Positions 2,929-11,078 of a stretch of DNA of 63,119 nucleotides are shown one piece after another (position 1 is the first letter of the stretch; each line of letters opens with the position of its first letter). Position numbers and translations under genes: made by a program. Source of the stretch: a plasmid. The notes under the pieces are model-generated. The model had not been told where the DNA came from. It did not search any database and saw only the letters and a list, made by a program, of their open reading frames with translations. Location of the stretch: the NCBI RefSeq assembly GCF_056746865.1, contig NZ_JBWKMP010000006.1; one strand, given 5' to 3'.

Positions 2929-3294
2929 TTTACTCCCCCGCTCCGGCGGGGGTATGGCCTGCCAGGCCGCCGGAAAACCCTGGCAGGCTTACGCCTGCCT
3001 GAAATGCAGGAGGGCCGCGCCTGCGGCGCTGCCCTTCCTGCCCGTCATGGTGTGAGGCATTTTTCTGTTATGTCGTTTCTGTTGTTCTGATTTCCGGAGG
3101 CGGGGACACCTTCGGCTCCCGGCTGCCTGGCGGCATCCGGTCGTCAGGCCCGACTCCGACAGGCAGCTGCTGGCGCACCCGCCAGTCTCCGCCGAACCCG
3201 CTGGCGCGGTTTCGGGCTGCCGCTACGGTCCGATGTCTGAAAAACCAGGCTTGCAGCGACCGTTCCGGTCGCGCCGCCCCTGTCGCGCCGGAAA

Positions 3295-3640
3295 CGGCGC
3301 TCCCTGCACACCTGACGGTGTGTAAGGCCACTGCGCCTGATGGCGCAGTCAACCCTTCCGCCGCCACCCCTGCGGCCTGTTTCCCGCTGTGGACTTTCCG
3401 GGGGCTGGAGTAACCACATCCCGTTTCAGCAGTCCAGGGGAAGATATACCGTCCACAAAATTTTTAGCCATAAACCCGGCAAAAAATTTTGCGTCCGCCC
3501 CGGACAGCTGCCCCGTGACGTGGTGACGGACGCCCCATCGGAAAGGTCCACTGCGGGGAGAAACCCCGAAGAAGTGGACGGCAGAAGGGGCTTTCGCCCC
3601 TCCGGGGAGCAACCGGTCGGCCCGGCGACCTGATTCAGCA
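3295..3640 (+). repeat. Frpo/ssi-like element, copy 1 (candidate single-stranded-DNA promoter)
   Basis: ~345-bp GC-rich non-coding block, about 80 percent identical over its length to 6172-6520 and beginning with the shared core CGGCGCTCCCTGCACACCT...GTGTAAGGCCACTGCGCCTGATGGCGCAG; ends just before ORF 3656. Confidence 0.5.
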
Positions 3641-3655
3641 GAAGGAGACGTTTTC

Positions 3656-4090
3656 ATGACAGTCAGCAGCACGATTTCCGTTTTTTGCCGCGACGGGGTG
3701 TTCCGTACCGTTTACTGCCACCTGCACGGTGAGCCGACCTGGAACGGTCGCATCCTGCATACCCACTATGCCACCGGTCAGCAGGCCGAAGCCCTGGTTG
3801 AACACGGTGATATCCGTTGCCTCGGTCCCCGTTGCGACAAACCCGCCGGGCATACGCTTCAGAACCCGGTGGACGGTGTGACGGCTTATTACGGACGTGA
3901 CAGTGGTTTCCGGATGGACAGTGAGGCGCGTGAGTACCGTTCTTTCAGGGAGGCTATTGCCACTGAAAGCACTGAAGAGGTGCGCTTCCATTATGTGTTC
4001 ATCGACGGCTACTGGAAGGTGATGTACCGCACGCCGGAAGGCTGGAAGATGAAAGCGCTCGCGCTGGCACTGCGTCGCTGTCCGGAATGA
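3656..4090 (+). CDS. hypothetical Cys/His-containing leading-region protein
   Basis: 144-aa ORF with AGGAGA Shine-Dalgarno, immediately downstream of Frpo-like copy 1; terminator follows. Confidence 0.7.
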   Translation: MTVSSTISVFCRDGVFRTVYCHLHGEPTWNGRILHTHYATGQQAEALVEHGDIRCLGPRCDKPAGHTLQNPVDGVTAYYGRDSGFRMDSEAREYRSFREAIATESTEEVRFHYVFIDGYWKVMYRTPEGWKMKALALALRRCPE

Positions 4091-4449: not shown

Positions 4450-4513
4450 TTAACCCTTGCCGTCTGCCTGTGCAGGCGGCAGGATACGTTCAGACATCTC
4501 ACCAGGAGGAACC

Positions 4514-5428
4514 GTGAGTAAGAAGAAAAACACCACAACGCCCACGCCGCATGATGCCGCGTTCCGGTCGTTCCTGGCGAATCCCGACGTCGCCAGAGAT
4601 TTTCTGGAACTGCATCTTCCGGCGGAGTACCGGCAGTTGTGCGACCTGTCCACGCTGAAGCTGGAACCCGCCACCTTTGTTGAGCCGGACCTGCATCAGT
4701 ACGCCAGCGATATCCTCTGGAGCGTGAAAACCACCGGGGGTGAAGATGGCTATGTTTATACGCTCATCGAGCACCAGAGCACCGAAAATCTGTACATGCC
4801 TTTCCGCATGTTACGTTACAGTGTGGCGGCGATGCAGAGACATCTGGAGCAGCACAAAACGTTGCCACTGGTGATTCCTGTACTGTTCTATCATGGTGAG
4901 CGCAGCCCGTACCCGTACAGCATGAACTGGCTGGACTGTTTTGAGAATCCGGCACTTGCGGCTAAAATATACACAAAGCCGTTTCCGCTGGTTGATATCA
5001 CTGTCGTTGATGACAATGAAATCATGAACCATCGCCGGATGGCCGCACTGACGCTGCTGATGAAGCATATCCGCCATCGTGACATGATGGAGCTGCTGGA
5101 CAAACTCCCGCAGGTCATGGTGGAAATTTCAGACGAGCAGGTGCGTGTTCTGATTCATTACATCGTTAACGCAGGGGACTCTGTATCACCGGAATTTATG
5201 CGGGCGCTGGCTGAGCGTCTGCCGCAGCATGAGGATAAACTGATGACTATCGCAGAACGTCTTGAGCAAAAAGGTCGCCAGGAAGGCAGGATGGAAGGAC
5301 GCATGGAAGGAGCGCTTGAAAAAGCCCTGGCTATTGCGTGCCAGCTTCAGAAAATGGGGATGACGCCGGAGCAGATTAAGCAGGCTACCGGACTTTCCGA
5401 TGACGAACTGAAGAAAATCACTCACTGA
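4514..5428 (+). CDS. Rpn family recombination-promoting nuclease (YhgA-like, PD-(D/E)XK)
   Basis: Product ...PTPHDAAFRSFLANPDVARDFLELHLP...YTLIEHQSTENLYMPFRMLRY...PLVIPVLFYHGERSPYP... closely resembles E. coli YhgA/Rpn proteins as recalled; AGGAGGA Shine-Dalgarno before GTG 4514. Confidence 0.85.
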   Translation: MSKKKNTTTPTPHDAAFRSFLANPDVARDFLELHLPAEYRQLCDLSTLKLEPATFVEPDLHQYASDILWSVKTTGGEDGYVYTLIEHQSTENLYMPFRMLRYSVAAMQRHLEQHKTLPLVIPVLFYHGERSPYPYSMNWLDCFENPALAAKIYTKPFPLVDITVVDDNEIMNHRRMAALTLLMKHIRHRDMMELLDKLPQVMVEISDEQVRVLIHYIVNAGDSVSPEFMRALAERLPQHEDKLMTIAERLEQKGRQEGRMEGRMEGALEKALAIACQLQKMGMTPEQIKQATGLSDDELKKITH

Positions 5429-5440
5429 TGAGAACCACAA

Positions 5441-5467
5441 AGCCCGGCAAAATGCCGGGCTTTTTTG
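5441..5467 (+). terminator. rho-independent terminator after rpn
   Basis: AGCCCGGCA-AAAT-GCCGGGCT stem-loop followed by TTTTTT. Confidence 0.6.
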
Positions 5468-5490
5468 TCAGCAGGAGCAGAGCAAACAGC

Positions 5491-5673
5491 ATGACGATTG
5501 CAGAACGTCTTATACAGAAAGGTTTCGACGAGGGTTTTAAACAAGGGGCTCTTGAAGTGGCGCGGGAAATAGCCTGCCGGCTTCGGGATATAGGCTGGCC
5601 GCCGGAACGGATTCAGGAGGTCACGGGACTTTCCGGTGAAGAACTGAAAAAGCTGTTTCCTGATGAGCAGTAG
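5491..5673 (+). CDS. small stand-alone paralogue of the Rpn C-terminal domain (RpnS-like)
   Basis: 60-aa ORF MTIAERLIQKGFDEGFKQGALEVAREIACRLRDIGWPPERIQEVTGLSGEELKK... with AGGAGCAG Shine-Dalgarno; aligns with the last ~60 aa of the upstream Rpn (MTIAERLEQKG...TGLSDDELKK). Confidence 0.6.
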   Translation: MTIAERLIQKGFDEGFKQGALEVAREIACRLRDIGWPPERIQEVTGLSGEELKKLFPDEQ

Positions 5674-5703: not shown

Positions 5704-5955
5704 TCACACATCCTCTGCCGTTTCCCCCAGTTCATTTTCCAGTCGCCTGATGATATCTGCCTTACGCATCCCCTGCATGTGAGGCAGCAGGTCACGGACT
5801 GAAAGTGCCTGGGTGGTCCTCCAGACGGTGACGTCCACCTGTTCCGCATTTTCCCAGGCGTGCCATGTTCTCTGCGTCACGCCAAATTCTCTGGCCGCTT
5901 TTTCGCGTGACCAGAGCATGCTTTTTCGCCAGATTCGCAGTTCCCAGCCGGTCAT
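5704..5955 (-). CDS. small helix-turn-helix DNA-binding regulator (XRE/Cro-like)
   Basis: 83-aa ORF with an HTH-like segment SREKAAREFGVTQRTWHAWE; AAGGTG Shine-Dalgarno; divergent from Frpo-like copy 2. Confidence 0.6.
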   Translation of the reverse strand: MTGWELRIWRKSMLWSREKAAREFGVTQRTWHAWENAEQVDVTVWRTTQALSVRDLLPHMQGMRKADIIRRLENELGETAEDV

Positions 5956-5966
5956 AAAACACCTTT

Positions 5967-6060
5967 GAAAAAGTGAAAAAACTTCACTTTATTTTATCAT
6001 CACAATTGCCAAATCAGCGCGATAAATAAGTGTAAAAAAGTGAAGAAATTTCACTTTTTT
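5967..6060. promoter_or_regulatory. two AGTGAA-N-TTCACT palindromes (candidate operators) in the promoter region of the HTH gene
   Basis: AAAGTGAAAAAACTTCACTTT (5969-5990) and AAAAAGTGAAGAAATTTCACTTTTT (6035-6060), AT-rich, directly upstream of the - strand HTH gene. Confidence 0.4.
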
Positions 6061-6171
6061 TGCTTGTAAATGTCGTGCGGTTTTCTCTGTTTTCACCTGT
6101 GCGGGAGTGGTGTGCCAGTGACCACCACATGCCATTGTTGTGCCGTCGTTTTTCTTCAGTCGCGCCGTATG

Positions 6172-6520
6172 CGGCGCTCCCTGCACACCTTACGGTGTGT
6201 AAGGCCACTGCGCCTGATGGCGCAGCTGTCTCTGCCTGTCTGCCGCCGCACTGCGGCCTGTTCTCCGCAGACGGACTTTCCGGGGGTACATACATGACCA
6301 CATCCCGTTTCAGTCGTCCAGGGGGGAGATGTACCAGCCACAAAACTTTTTGCCGCAGGCGTCAAAAACTTTTGCGTCTGCCCCCGGACAACTGCCCCGT
6401 GACGTGGTGAGCGTCCCCCGTCGGAAAGGTCCACTGCGGGGAAATCCCCGAAGACCCGGACGGCAGAAGGAGCTTCGCTCCTCCGGGAAATGACCTGGCT
6501 GTCCCGGCAGTCGTGACGAT
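6172..6520 (+). repeat. Frpo/ssi-like element, copy 2 (candidate single-stranded-DNA promoter)
   Basis: Homologous to 3295-3640 (same 5-prime core and shared downstream blocks such as CTGCCCCGTGACGTGGTGA and GGAAAGGTCCACTGCGGGGA); ends at the Shine-Dalgarno of ORF 6535. Confidence 0.5.
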
Positions 6521-6534
6521 GAGGAGACAATGTG

Positions 6535-7383
6535 ATGAATCAGACTTTACCCACTGCTGACCTGAATACTGCCGGCACGACAGATGTTATTCCGTCTGTG
6601 GCTATCGACCGCATCATCGCGCAGCGTAACGAAGGTATTGCACTGTTCATGCAGGCGATGGAATGCCTGGCGACAGCGCGCAAGATTCTGCTCGATGCGT
6701 CAGGTGATATTTTTCTTTACGGGTTTGAAGACTGCGTGACTGATTCCGTTCGTCGCATAGATAAACCGGAAGAAGCGAAAAGGAATATCACCCGTCTTGC
6801 CGACCGGAAAATCTGGGACCGCCTGATGACAGATACGGGCATGTACACCTTCATGAGTTCATGCCAGCGTGATGAGTGGAACAGCCAGCTGATGAGCGAC
6901 ACCTGTCCTGAAATCACCCTGGACAATGTACTGGCAACATTCCGCCATCTGAATGCCTGCAAGATGCAGACATTTGAACAGGGACTGATTGATGTCTACC
7001 GGAAATTGTCATGGGATTACAGAACCAATAATCCCTGCCGTCTGGGTAAGAAAATCATTATTGAAAACCTGCTGTACCGCTGGAGTAACGGGCGTGTGAC
7101 GCTGGACTGCAGCGGACGGGAGGCACTGGATGACCTGGTACGTCCGTTTTATCTGCTGGAGGGGCGCAACGTTCCTGACTTCAGGAACAGTATCGGGGCG
7201 CAGTATGGTGAATTTCTCGGGAACGGCGACAATGTCGGTAAGCTGTTAGAAGGGGAATATTTTACGGTGCGTGGCTACCAGAAAGGGACCGTACACATTG
7301 TCTTTAAGCGTTCTGACCTTGTTGAAAAACTGAATGATATTATTGCACGGCATTATCCAGGTGCATTGCCGCCACGAGTCTGA
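6535..7383 (+). CDS. hypothetical leading-region protein (family guess: DUF4942-like)
   Basis: ~282-aa ORF with GAGGAGA Shine-Dalgarno, directly downstream of Frpo-like copy 2; the family assignment is from memory only. Confidence 0.7.
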   Translation: MNQTLPTADLNTAGTTDVIPSVAIDRIIAQRNEGIALFMQAMECLATARKILLDASGDIFLYGFEDCVTDSVRRIDKPEEAKRNITRLADRKIWDRLMTDTGMYTFMSSCQRDEWNSQLMSDTCPEITLDNVLATFRHLNACKMQTFEQGLIDVYRKLSWDYRTNNPCRLGKKIIIENLLYRWSNGRVTLDCSGREALDDLVRPFYLLEGRNVPDFRNSIGAQYGEFLGNGDNVGKLLEGEYFTVRGYQKGTVHIVFKRSDLVEKLNDIIARHYPGALPPRV

Positions 7384-7394
7384 TTAAACAGAAA

Positions 7395-7427
7395 AGCCCT
7401 GGTATTTATGCCGGGGCTTTTTTTTCT
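7395..7427. terminator. bidirectional rho-independent terminator
   Basis: AGCCCTGG...CCGGGGCT hairpin preceded by an A-run and followed by T8; sits between convergent ORFs. Confidence 0.5.
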
Positions 7428-7468
7428 GTAATCATCATAATCTCAGAACACAATGTGACATTGTCACA

Positions 7469-7804
7469 TCAATTGTTGTTCATATCGATGCCATCTTTCC
7501 TGCCTGAATCTGTCTTTTTAGGTGCTGTTTTAGAGGAAGAACGGCGGGATGGTTTTTTCGATTCTGCTTCCCGAATAATGTCACGAAGTGCCTTCTCTCC
7601 TACTTCATACCCTGCATTTTTGAGCGTGTCACGAACATCTGCCAGTGTATAACCCTTTGTCCTTACCAGGACAATAATGTCATCACGAATGGCATCAAGA
7701 AAATCACGCAATGTTTTCCGTTGAGCGGTGAGATCTGGCAATTCCGATAAAGCAGCTTTTGCCAGCTGGATGTCATCATCTGAGTAAAATTTTTTAGAAG
7801 CCAT
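7469..7804 (-). CDS. hypothetical protein with a basic Ser/Lys-rich C-terminal tail
   Basis: 111-aa ORF from ATG (7804) with GGAGA upstream; lies between the leading region and oriT. Confidence 0.5.
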   Translation of the reverse strand: MASKKFYSDDDIQLAKAALSELPDLTAQRKTLRDFLDAIRDDIIVLVRTKGYTLADVRDTLKNAGYEVGEKALRDIIREAESKKPSRRSSSKTAPKKTDSGRKDGIDMNNN

Positions 7805-7859
7805 TGGCACTTTCTCTCCGTTTCATGTTGAAGCCTGATTTTATCATCAAAAACTGACT

Positions 7860-8030
7860 CCTGGCAGGGCTGCGCCCTGCCTCTGCCGTCTGCATAAGAC
7901 TATGATGCACAAAAATAACAGGCTATAATGGCCAAAATCGGGGCAGGATGTGGGAATGTCGGACCGCGCACGCTCGCTCAGACATTCCCCACCTGGTCAG
8001 GGCTGCGCCCCGACACCCCGTAAGGAGCTG
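7860..8030. other. oriT: oriT region (origin of transfer), candidate nic site
   Basis: Directly upstream of nikA; inverted repeat GGCAGGGCTGCGCCCTGCC (7863-7881); 9-bp inverted repeat GGGAATGTC...GACATTCCC (7952-7989); IncP-like ATCCTG motif on the - strand at 7944-7949; second GGTCAGGGCTGCGCCCCGAC copy at 7995-8014. Confidence 0.55.
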
Positions 8031-8032
8031 AA

Positions 8033-8366
8033 GTGAGTGATAGTGCGGAAAAGAAAGAAAAGTGAGGTACGGCAAAAGACAGTTGTCAGGACACTCAGAT
8101 TCTCGGAGGATGAGGATGAAATCATAAGGAAAAAAGCTGAAGATTCCGGACTTACTGTATCTGCTTACATCCGAAATGCAGCACTGAATAAGCGAATTAA
8201 CTCCCGTACAGATGATGCTTTTCTGAAGGAGTTAATGAGACTGGGAAGGATGCAGAAGCATCTGTTTGTTCAGGGAAAAAGAACCGGTGACAAGGAATAC
8301 GCAGAAGTGCTTGTTGCCATAACCGAACTTACAAATACATTGCGTAAACAGTTAATGGAAGGTTGA
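8033..8366 (+). CDS. nikA: NikA relaxosome accessory protein (ribbon-helix-helix); start ambiguous
   Basis: Product ...KKSEVRQKTVVRTLRFSEDEDEIIRKKAEDSGLTVSAYIRNAALNKR... matches NikA as recalled; best Shine-Dalgarno (AAGGAG) serves GTG 8033, but that frame stops after 10 codons and the long frame starts at GTG 8037, implying a 1-nt indel in the GAAAAGAAAGAAAAG run. Confidence 0.8.
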
Positions 8367-8376
8367 GGATTCTCCT

Positions 8377-11078
8377 GTGAATGCAGTCATTCCGAAAAAG
8401 AGAAGGGACGGCAAGTCTTCGTTCGAAGACCTGGTATCCTACGTCTCTGTCCGGGATGACATGACCGATGAGGAACTGAATTTATCTTCTTCTTCGCAGG
8501 CTGAACAACCGCACCGAAGCCGTTTCAGTCGCCTTGTTGATTATGCGACACGCCTTCGAAATGAGTCATTCGTGGCGCTGGTTGATGTCATGAAGGACGG
8601 CTGCGAATGGGTCAACTTTTATGGTGTCACCTGTTTTCATAACTGTACTTCTCTTGAAACTGCTGCTGCAGATATGGAGTACATTGCGGACGGCAGGCAC
8701 ACTATGCAAAAGATGATACTGACCCTGTTTTTCACTACATTCTTTCCTGGCAGTCACATGAAAGCCCGCGTCCGGAACAGATTTATGACAGTGTACGTCA
8801 TACGCTGAAATCACTCGGCCTTGCCGACCATCAGTATGTCTCTGCCGTGCATACTGATACAGATAATCTGCACGTCCATGTGGCTGTTAACCGGGTACAC
8901 CCTGAAACGGGTTATCTGAACCGGTTATCATGGAGTCAGGAAAAACTCAGTCGTGCCTGCCGTGAGCTTGAACTGAAGCATGGTTTTGCTCCGGATAACG
9001 GTTGCTGGGTCCATGCGCCGGGAAATCGTATCGTTCGCAAAACTGCCGTTGAACGTGATCGCCAGAACGCTTGGACACGCGGAAAAAAACAAACTTTTCG
9101 CGAGTATGTTGCGCAGACAGCGGTCGCTGGTTTACGCAGTGAACCTGTACATGACTGGTTATCCCTGCATCGTCGTCTTGCGGAAGATGGTCTGTACCTG
9201 TCTCAGATGGACGGAAAATTTCTGGTGATGGATGGCTGGGATCGCAACAGGGAAGGTGTACAGCTTGACTCGTTTGGTCCCTCCTGGTGTGCAGAAAAAC
9301 TCATGAAAAAAATGGGTGACTACACGCCAGTGCCAAAAGACATTTTCAGCCAGGTGGAAGCACCAGGACGCTATAATCCGGACTTCATTGCAGCTGATGT
9401 TCGCCCGGAAAAAATCGCTGAAACAGAAAGTCTGCAGCAGTATGCCTGTCGTCATCTTGGAGAACGTCTGCCGGAAATGGCACGGGAAGGACGGCTGGAA
9501 AACTGCCAGGCTATTCACCGCACACTGGCTGAAGCGGGATTATGGATGCGTGTTCAGCATGGTCACCTGGTTATCTGTGACGGTTATGATCATAACCAGA
9601 CTCCCGTTCGTGCTGACAGCGTATGGTCACTGCTGACGCTCGACAATGTGAATCAACTCGATGGTGGCTGGCAGCCTGTACCAACAGATATTTTCCGCCA
9701 GGTTACGCCAACAGAACGCTTCCGTGGTCGTCGTATGGAGAGCTGTCCTGCGACCGATAAAGAATGGCACCGTATGCGTACAGGTACGGGGCCGCAGGGG
9801 GCTATCAAACGCGAACTGTTTTCTGACAAAGAAAGTCTGTGGGGATACAGCATCAGCCATTGTAGCCCTCAGATTGAAGAAATGATCACACAGGGTGAGT
9901 TTACCTGGCAGCGTTGTCATGAGTTGTTTGCACAACAGGGACTGATGCTACAGAAACAACATCACGGGCTTGTTGTCGTTGATGCCTTTAATCATGAGCA
10001 AACGCCGGTGAAGGCCAGCAGCATTCATCCTGATCTGACACTGGGGCGTGCGGAGCCACAGGCCGGACCTTTTGTGAGTGCTCCAGCAGATTTGTTTGAC
10101 AGGGTGCAACCTGAAAATCGCTATAACCCGGAGCTGGCTGTCAGTGACAGGTACGGGGTCAGCAGTAAACGTGACCCAATGCTGCGCCGGCAGCGACGTG
10201 AAGCCAGGGCTGAGGCCCGTGCTGACCTGCGTGCCCGCTATCTGGCATGGCGTGAACAATGGCGTAAACCGGATCTGCGTTATGGGGAACGTTGTCGGGA
10301 AATTCATCAGGCATGCCGTCTGCGGAAGTCACACATTCGTGCGCAGTACGATGATCCGGCATTACGTAAGCTGCATTATCACATTGCAGAAGTTCAGCGA
10401 ATGCAGGCATTGATCAGGCTGAAAGAAGACATCAGGGATGAGCGACAGAAACTTATTGCTGACGGGAAGTGGTATCCACCCTCTTACCGTCAGTGGGTCG
10501 AAATTCAGGCTGCTCAGGGAGACAGGGCTGCTGTATCGCAGTTGAGAGGCTGGGATTATCGCGATCGCCGTAAAGACAAGTCACGCACAACGACGACAGA
10601 CCGCTGTGTCGTGCTTTGTGAACCGGGCGGAACGCCGGTATACGGTAATACCGGTGATCTCGAGGCCCGTCTGCAGAAGAACGGGAGTGTTCGTTTCCGT
10701 GACCGTCGGACGGGAGAGTTTGTCTGTACGGATTATGGTGACAGGGTTGTTTTCCGTAATCACCATGACCGCAATGCGCTGGCAGATAAACTGGATTTGA
10801 TTGCACCGGTATTATTCGGGCGTGATCCACGCATGGGGTTTGAACCAGAAGGAAACGACAAACAATTTAACCAGGTCTTTGCTGAAATGGTTGCCTGGCA
10901 TAATGTGACAGGCCGTACCGGTCACGAAGACTACAGGATTACGCGACCGGACGTGGATCATCACCGTGAAGGAAGTGAACGCTACTACCGCGATTATATC
11001 GCGGCGAACAGCAACGATGACGCATCACTGCCTCCGCCGGAGCAGGATAAACGCTGGGAACCGCCTTCTCCAGGTTAA
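8377..11078 (+). pseudogene. nikB: NikB relaxase (MOBP), frameshifted in this sequence around 8698-8708
   Basis: N-terminal 143-aa ORF (8377-8808) and 743-aa ORF (8847-11078) join if one nucleotide is restored; the second frame upstream reads ...DPVFHYILSWQSHESPRPEQIYDSVRHTLKSLGLADHQYVSAVHTDTDNLHVHVAVNRVHPETGY (His-rich relaxase motif); combined ~900 aa. Confidence 0.85.

Follow-up and report, generated by a model that had tools for sequence, protein, structure and literature searches.

A 282-residue protein of the DUF4942 family was encoded directly behind the Frpo1/ssi1 single-stranded-DNA promoter in the leading region of an IncI1-type conjugative plasmid. The protein represents, in stand-alone form, the domain that makes up the N-terminal half of orphan N6-adenine methyltransferase-like proteins encoded by phages, prophages and genomic islands. 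The gene was analysed in a 63,119-nt stretch of plasmid DNA (contig NZ_JBWKMP010000006.1 of RefSeq assembly GCF_056746865.1), hereafter the window. With a probability of about 0.4, we regard the protein as a recipient-side autonomous binding module tied to DNA modification or restriction evasion. The gene was already annotated, its family was known to be enriched in leading regions, and transposon-sequencing and transcriptome datasets were available for a near-identical plasmid. The points added here are its non-methyltransferase status, the lack of a solved structural relative, and its recognition as the free form of a phage and prophage orphan methyltransferase module.

The open reading frame (ORF) is a genuine coding gene and not a chance ORF, because it matched Pfam DUF4942, had a large set of homologues and showed a low ratio of nonsynonymous to synonymous substitution rates (dN/dS). 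A DUF4942-like family had been suspected in an original prediction made from the letters of the DNA, and a hidden Markov model (HMM) search bore this out. The DUF4942 model (PF13708) matched residues 90–275 with E = 3.2e-50 and 170.9 bits, and the match ran from position 5 to 189 of the 190 in the model (185/190 covered). Homologues formed 1998 clusters at 50% identity in a library of 1.8 billion proteins, most of them intact ORFs of ~255–295 aa. The identical proteins were named 'DUF4942 domain-containing protein' by the Prokaryotic Genome Annotation Pipeline (PGAP). The dN/dS was 0.13 against a 79%-identical homologue, and the values of ardA and nikA in the same plasmid pair were 0.11 and 0.09, respectively.

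The product had a mass of 32 kDa and an isoelectric point (pI) of 6.0, the family median being 7.6. Structure prediction with AlphaFold from a 103-sequence alignment, a check named in the original prediction, gave a confident model with a mean predicted local distance difference test (pLDDT) score of 90.3 and a predicted template modelling (pTM) score of 0.81. The model was composed of ~20 disordered N-terminal residues, a helical lobe (residues 22–159) and an alpha/beta lobe (residues 173–273). The model had no solved structural relative, and none was found in the PDB by sequence or by the 103-sequence profile, the best match having E = 1.2. Residues W94, L158, D200, H254 and N267 were invariant in the 103-sequence alignment and all present in the window protein, and residues S21, R31, D90, W115, W160, N165, R203 and R217 were at least 90% conserved in the family. 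The equivalents of the W/L/D/H/N set were also invariant in 64 fused relatives.

Searches of Pfam, NCBIfam and PHROG matched the DUF4942 protein to no anti-defence family. The NCBIfam search gave a 12-bit noise match only, and the PADLOC search gave a single weak match over 35 residues (E = 0.0023, '2TM effector'), which was disregarded; no defence family was matched either. For families 24 and 76, Samuel et al. 2024 give NA in both the DIAMOND and the Foldseek comparison with anti-CRISPR and anti-restriction sets. No homologue with a characterised function outside defence, which would have spoken against an anti-defence role, was encountered either; the sole characterised relatives were the methyltransferase fusions described below.

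The 'DNA (N6-adenine) methyltransferase' names that the family carries in databases are inherited labels and are not applicable to the window protein. A methyltransferase identity was rejected because the protein had neither motif I nor motif IV and its AlphaFold model had no Rossmann fold. The SAM-binding motif I (VLEPSAG.G type; SAM, S-adenosylmethionine) was absent from the 282 residues, the sole G.G being a GNG at residue 229 in another context, and a regular-expression search of the protein for (D/N/S)PP(Y/F/W) returned none. No methyltransferase family of Pfam matched the window protein. A DNA mimic was also rejected, since the near-neutral pI of 6.0, compared with 4.1 for ArdA, does not fit an ArdA-like mimic.

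A minority of the relatives were 440–580 aa long and joined an N-terminal DUF4942 domain to a C-terminal class-I SAM methyltransferase domain, which carried the VLEPSAG.G and MNPPF motifs. The window protein was matched by the first 286 positions of PHROG 6263 ('DNA methyltransferase', 548 positions). The fusion enzymes are likely N6-adenine DNA methyltransferases, although their best solved match, the N6-adenine enzyme M.TaqI, was weak (E = 8e-4) and rRNA and protein amino-methyltransferases scored alike in NCBIfam. Fusions were present in 64 phage records, including Pseudomonas phage phiPSA1 gp22, Marinomonas phage P12026 gp32, Salmonella phage SSU5_095 and Dolphis gp121, and the phage fusions were located in early or replication modules. 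A fusion in a Brevundimonas prophage (protein P0278) adjoined DnaB, and another was located in a Rubrivivax DNA-modification island together with BrxC-, DpdA- and C5-methylase-type genes. Longer fusions contained an extra middle segment with 'GG(R/K)W...H.F' between DUF4942 and the catalytic domain (~290–370 in protein P0223).

The identical type of catalytic domain was elsewhere joined to ParB_N/HTH_ParB or to PF18760 instead of DUF4942. We take PF18760 to be the N-terminal domain of ArdC, in which case both alternative partners would be DNA-binding modules of a kind typical for mobile elements. When a 470-aa fusion was modelled with AlphaFold, its two domains were well folded, whereas the linker (residues 265–278) was disordered and the pTM was 0.50. 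The model thus indicates that DUF4942 is a self-contained module on a tether and is not integrated with the enzyme as a recognition domain. On the same grounds, and with no fixed packing predicted, DUF4942 as a rigidly packed target-recognition domain was rejected. A split methyltransferase with its partner encoded nearby was also rejected, since a tblastn search with the fusion catalytic domain was empty at the loci searched.

The labels 'restriction alleviation protein, Lar family' and 'RE endonuclease', carried by phage homologues, were rejected as evidence, because Dolphis gp121 aligned as a DUF4942–methyltransferase fusion and MR15 gp23 resembled phiPSA1 gp22. The MR15 gp23 gene encodes 543 aa and was equal to phiPSA1 gp22 in length and match coordinates; its 'restriction alleviation protein' label had no evident support. 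The fusion gene was clustered with two or three more methylase genes in the Pseudomonas phage MR15 (locus L020) and in phiPSA1 (locus L018). Free proteins of ~280 aa with weak N6_Mtase matches were also observed near DUF4942 genes at two loci (L006:432–1295 and L007:15234–16079).

The Frpo-like element claimed directly upstream of the gene was real. Its minus strand was 98.8% identical (325/329) to ColIb-P9 Frpo1 (AJ238399.1:1459–1787), the ColIb-P9 reference sequences being those of supplementary file 4 of Samuel et al. 2024. The minus strand of 6100–6534 folded as a long hairpin of -116.7 kcal/mol (z = -7.5), and the end of Frpo1 was located 49 nt 5' of the DUF4942 ATG. The minus strand of 3280–3604 was 99.4% identical to ColIb-P9 Frpo2, and the two copies of the window were 81% identical to each other when the latter was taken as 3282–3606. 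The upstream element, which had been called the second of its kind, is indeed second by window order; counted from the origin of transfer (oriT), it is the first. The Frpo core was 74% identical over 118 nt to F plasmid DNA upstream of the DUF932 operon of F. The second copy, at 3280–3604 (-), drives a 144-aa ORF at 3656–4090 (+) with an AAGGAG ribosome-binding site, and further small ORFs and the Rpn gene are located downstream of that ORF.

The ColIb record is numbered outward from its oriT end and matched the window minus strand. This makes the minus strand the transferred one (T-strand), and the plus-strand genes, including DUF4942, are templated by it as it enters. The DUF4942 gene was flanked by nikA and nikB to the right and by the ardA–psiA–psiB block to the left. 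Both the predicted leading-region position and an orientation readable from the transferred strand held. When pESBL transconjugants were studied by RNA sequencing after donor elimination, strong induction was seen for six operons of the leading region; each of the six is preceded by a predicted single-strand hairpin, with a start mapped by 5' rapid amplification of cDNA ends (PMC12672017). The three class 1 promoters of pESBL matched ColIb ssi1–3 and were the strongest induced (PMC12672017). From the map we infer that the ssi1-driven operon is hp22, because it is the sole gene between ssi1 and the terminator. Early expression of the DUF4942 gene is thus supported indirectly, by analogy with the near-identical pESBL locus.

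Within the unit, the Frpo1/ssi1 element was followed by the ribosome-binding site GAGGAG, the ORF and an intrinsic terminator, and the terminator behind the ORF makes the unit monocistronic. The RNA of 7381–7432, containing the terminator, folded with -23.4 kcal/mol (z = -6.3). An in-frame alternative start, GTG, was present at 6532, and the ATG start adopted here was also chosen by the PGAP annotation in pND11_107 and pESBL. The gene is the IncI1 backbone gene ygfB/hp22, named ygfB in R64 by UniProt and hp22 (O3K_25947) in pESBL. It was the largest uncharacterised leading-region ORF of the window, as had been stated, the larger Rpn-family gene having a family name. It did not possess the strongest ribosome-binding site that had been attributed to it. 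The duplex of GAGGAG with the anti-Shine-Dalgarno sequence had -9.4 kcal/mol, compared with -12.4 for psiA, -10.3 for the rpn gene and -9.3 for ardA; the values of psiA and ardA are firm, and several others, including the approximate one of rpn, are for starts set by offset from pND11_107 that fall off start codons.

The window has the backbone of an IncI1-type conjugative plasmid, and its segment 5900–7900 was matched in 2083 plasmid records, with at least 80% covered in 1922. By the annotation of pND11_107 and pESBL, the order of the genes was psiB, psiA, a hypothetical gene, ardA, Frpo2, two hypothetical genes, the Rpn-family gene, a small ORF, two minus-strand genes (a helix-turn-helix (HTH) regulator and a 65-aa ORF), Frpo1 and DUF4942, followed by a yggA-like gene on the minus strand, oriT, nikA, nikB, trbC, trbB and trbA. 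The oriT of pESBL mapped to ~7942–8024 in window coordinates. The DUF4942 unit was located ~0.55–1.8 kb from oriT and is fully inside the recipient after ~1.8 kb has been transferred. The coordinates of the unit and of its neighbour toward oriT are collected in Table 1.

Table 1. Features of the DUF4942 unit and its flank, in window coordinates
Feature	Position	Strand	Details
Frpo1/ssi1-type single-stranded-DNA promoter	6157..6485	-	hairpin on transferred strand; transcription toward higher coordinates
Shine-Dalgarno GAGGAG	6521..6526	+	8 nt 5' of ATG; read from sequence
DUF4942 coding sequence	6535..7383	+	282 aa, ATG 6535; stop codon end = 7383
Intrinsic terminator	7396..7425	+	7-bp GC-rich stem 7396-7402/7411-7417, then eight U
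yggA-like gene (PGAP 'MobC')	7469-7810	-	between DUF4942 terminator and oriT

The DUF4942 gene was widely distributed. A tblastn search found it in at least 5000 of 72,556 plasmid records, and 4605 of the 5000 listed (92%) were conjugative. Host genera among the matches listed were Escherichia, Klebsiella, Salmonella, Enterobacter and others; the same matches included homologues of ~50% identity in pOXA-48-type IncL/M plasmids, and large Klebsiella plasmids also carried the gene. Proteins of 100% identity were present on public IncI1 plasmids. The pESBL Hp22 protein was identical at 279 of 282 positions, and the DNA of its locus was 98.7% identical. In Supplementary Table 1 of Samuel et al. 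2024, DUF4942 proteins are listed as family 24, with 2171 members, a median position of 1 from oriT and T-strand orientation, and as family 76, with 551 members.

In unrelated backbones the gene was again located in the leading region and co-oriented with its neighbours. The neighbours in a Salmonella plasmid (locus L003) were SSB, PsiA, a KlcA-type antirestriction gene, DUF1380 and a small N6_N4 methylase, and those in a Pantoea plasmid (locus L007) were antirestriction, DUF905, ParB-like, PsiB and PsiA genes. A third locus, L015, showed an IncI-like arrangement around the gene. In L015 and the Pantoea plasmid, the DUF4942 operon was preceded by an Frpo-type element (in the Pantoea plasmid F ssiD-like, 70% over 358 nt), the Salmonella plasmid gave a partial Frpo-type match only, and no such element was detectable upstream of the gene in pOXA-48.

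These observations may be joined in a recipient-side mechanism. The Frpo1 hairpin on the entering strand would permit transcription of DUF4942 within seconds of DNA entry, and expression would fade or stop when complementary-strand synthesis converts the DNA into a duplex. In the recipient, the protein may act as an autonomous module that binds nucleic acid or a partner. A binding module seems most likely by analogy, because sister enzymes with the same catalytic domain have ParB-N/HTH or ArdC-N DNA-binding modules at the place taken by DUF4942 in the fusions, and from the same analogy we infer nucleic-acid binding. In the fusions, DUF4942 would bring the adenine methyltransferase to its substrate, and the free protein may shield or mark incoming DNA, or may recruit an adenine methyltransferase in trans. 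The protein would be of benefit solely where the recipient has an active restriction barrier, and its dispensability in laboratory matings would be explained in this way. The pESBL matings were presumably free of such a barrier.

Several observations weigh against this binding-module reading. The DUF4942 protein was not basic, with respect to both its own pI and the family median, and its conserved residues D200, H254 and N267 and tryptophans could equally mark the active site of an enzyme or a pocket for protein binding. By tblastn, the fusion catalytic domain had no match in the window and none at the IncI1 locus L001 or at the loci of the Salmonella and Pantoea plasmids. In pOXA-48, the DUF4942 gene had no annotated methyltransferase within 9 kb, and in the F plasmid a small leading-region methylase was present with DUF4942 absent; these two patterns make an obligate partnership with one plasmid methyltransferase unlikely. 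Transposon sequencing of pESBL scored Hp22 as 1.00 for non-essential, 0.00 for maintenance-essential and 0.00 for transfer-required (PMC4288162, Table 2), a lack of phenotype that is compatible with all recipient-side models. The hp22 gene is not named in the main text of PMC12672017. The literature searched contained no functional study of DUF4942, ydiA or ygfB and no experimentally assigned activity.

An early-establishment or anti-defence role had been proposed from the position of the gene. Early expression is supported indirectly, by way of the near-identical pESBL locus, and the anti-defence part is plausible from genomic context, without a match to any anti-defence family. A stronger form of the proposal is doubtful, namely that the free protein represents an early anti-restriction factor of a new class, its fold unseen in solved structures, and works as a trans-acting targeting subunit or as a decoy. 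As a targeting subunit, it would direct a plasmid or host adenine methyltransferase onto the entering strand; as a decoy, it would disable defence complexes that contain methyltransferases.

An establishment function unrelated to defence, such as help with complementary-strand synthesis or priming, an effect on host physiology or SOS, or host reprogramming as proposed for YfjB, is somewhat unlikely. It would agree with the position of DUF4942 as the earliest transcribable unit after oriT, with the prophage fusions that adjoin DnaB and replication genes, and with the leading-region proteins PsiB, SSB and YfjB, which act on host physiology and not on restriction. Frpo elements also prime DNA synthesis, according to work cited in PMC12672017. 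However, the sole recurrent domain partner of DUF4942 was an adenine methyltransferase-like domain, which points to DNA modification, and the protein had no similarity to replication or SOS factors and was dispensable for both transfer and maintenance.

It is quite unlikely that the free protein is a direct inhibitor or decoy that binds a host defence enzyme instead of DNA. Candidate targets would be Type I HsdM, HsdS or HsdR, Type IIG/IIL enzymes and BREX PglX, and in the fusions such a domain would supply the protective methyltransferase with another, independent activity against restriction. The leading-region setting beside ArdA and KlcA-type genes is in line with this idea, as are the predicted autonomy of the domain on its flexible tether in the fusion model and the W/D/H/N/R surface or pocket kept in free and fused forms. 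The junction of the same catalytic domain with PF18760 might serve as a precedent, provided that the ArdC identity is correct. On the other hand, no sequence or fold similarity to known anti-restriction proteins or DNA mimics was found, the pI differed from that of ArdA (6.0 against 4.1), and pESBL transposon sequencing gave no phenotype, with matings assumed to be restriction-free.

A donor-side role at oriT, as a relaxosome accessory factor or a regulator of tra, is largely refuted and very improbable. The DUF4942 gene adjoins the yggA-like gene and oriT, and Orf35 of pCTX-M3, a YggA homologue, affects nikAB and tra expression, deletion of orf35 raising mobilisation more than 100-fold (PMC6112013). 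Nevertheless, the pESBL required-for-transfer score was 0.00, homologues were located ~6–8 kb from the relaxase/oriT region in other plasmids and also occurred in phages and prophages without oriT, and the promoter type works on single-stranded DNA in the recipient. That the gene is a functionless remnant, the front half of a once-fused methyltransferase, is hardly credible: the catalytic domain of its relatives is missing and transposon sequencing gave no phenotype, but the idea is contradicted by a dN/dS as low as those of ardA and nikA, by the intact ORFs in most of the clusters, by the retained strong promoter, ribosome-binding site and terminator of its own, and by its occurrence in 5000 or more plasmids, which include IncI, IncL/M and Klebsiella plasmids.

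Other features of the surrounding region were observed. The nikB gene (8377–11078) was split into two ORFs, 8377–8808 and 8847–11078, by a frameshift from a 2-bp insertion at ~8688–8692 relative to pND11_107 (GCGGACGGCA against GC--CCGGCA), which reflects either a transfer-defective plasmid or a sequencing error. The region upstream of nikA that includes oriT (7920–8050) contained several indels and clustered mismatches relative to pND11_107, with flanks of ~98–99% identity, and the nikA start region had a 1-bp difference. As to the yggA-like gene next to the DUF4942 unit, Hp23 of pESBL was not required for transfer (PMC4288162).

A small ORF at 5428–5673 (+) repeated the C-terminal HTH segment of the Rpn-family gene at 4457–5428 (+). 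The direct repeat (5243–5286 and 5491–5534) had 75% identity, both proteins contained MTIAERL.QKG...LS..ELKK, and the counterpart of the small ORF in L015 matched HTH_Rpn_C. A free Rpn C-terminal domain could serve as an Rpn antidote in the leading region. Between the Rpn operon and Frpo1, the HTH regulator at 5704–5955 (-) and the 65-aa ORF at 5989–6186 (-) were oriented such that the entering T-strand cannot serve as their template. An HTH family similar to this regulator was labelled 'anti-CRISPR-associated gene 6' by Samuel et al.

The window copy is an ordinary, correctly recognised and already annotated backbone gene, and it is a worthwhile experimental target. The gene occurs on thousands of clinically important conjugative plasmids of the IncI1, pOXA-48-type IncL/M and large Klebsiella types, and in IncI1 it is the first transcribable unit after DNA entry, with a promoter of the strongest single-strand class. 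If a role in restriction evasion is true, the anti-defence repertoire of plasmids would gain a new protein fold and mechanism, and the part played by the non-catalytic half of widespread phage orphan methyltransferase-like proteins would be explained. An anti-restriction factor of this kind, among the 25 most abundant leading-region families, would be a widespread and unrecognised determinant of the spread of resistance plasmids.

When the window gene was compared with named systems, it did not differ from the hp22 and ygfB genes of IncI1 plasmids, with which it shared full-length homology, position, orientation and the upstream Frpo1. ArdA and KlcA/ArdB shared its genomic neighbourhood and expression logic, whereas they had no sequence or fold similarity to the DUF4942 protein, and ArdA is acidic (pI 4.1 against 6.0). 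Small methylases of the M.EcoGIX type (O3K_25847 of pESBL; the 227-aa 'DNA methylase' of F) had the leading region and the early programme in common with DUF4942. M.EcoGIX is the small 684-bp methylase gene in the pESBL table (PMC4288162). Protection of entering DNA has been proposed for this type of methylase, which was located outside the window, and no evidence of a partnership with DUF4942 was found. Its counterparts were annotated as N6_N4_Mtase in the Salmonella plasmid L003 and as 'DNA methylase' in F, unlike the MTS/N6_Mtase-type domain of the fusions, a difference that is one of annotation.

The closest positional analogue in F was ORF273, a protein of ~270–280 aa encoded by the large gene nearest to oriT in the F leading region, behind Frpo-like DNA and read from the T-strand. 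The two were set apart by family assignment, ORF273 belonging to Pfam DUF932 and the window protein to DUF4942; the correspondence between the F gene name and the F DUF932 gene is assumed here. The fusion proteins phiPSA1 gp22, P12026 gp32, SSU5_095 and P0278 were homologous over the whole length of DUF4942 and were located in early or replication modules. Zygotic induction has been reported for the F leading-region proteins Ssb, YfjA, YfjB, PsiB as well as YgeA (PMC12672017). The fusion proteins differed from the window protein in that they add a C-terminal class-I SAM methyltransferase domain, whereas the window protein ends after DUF4942.

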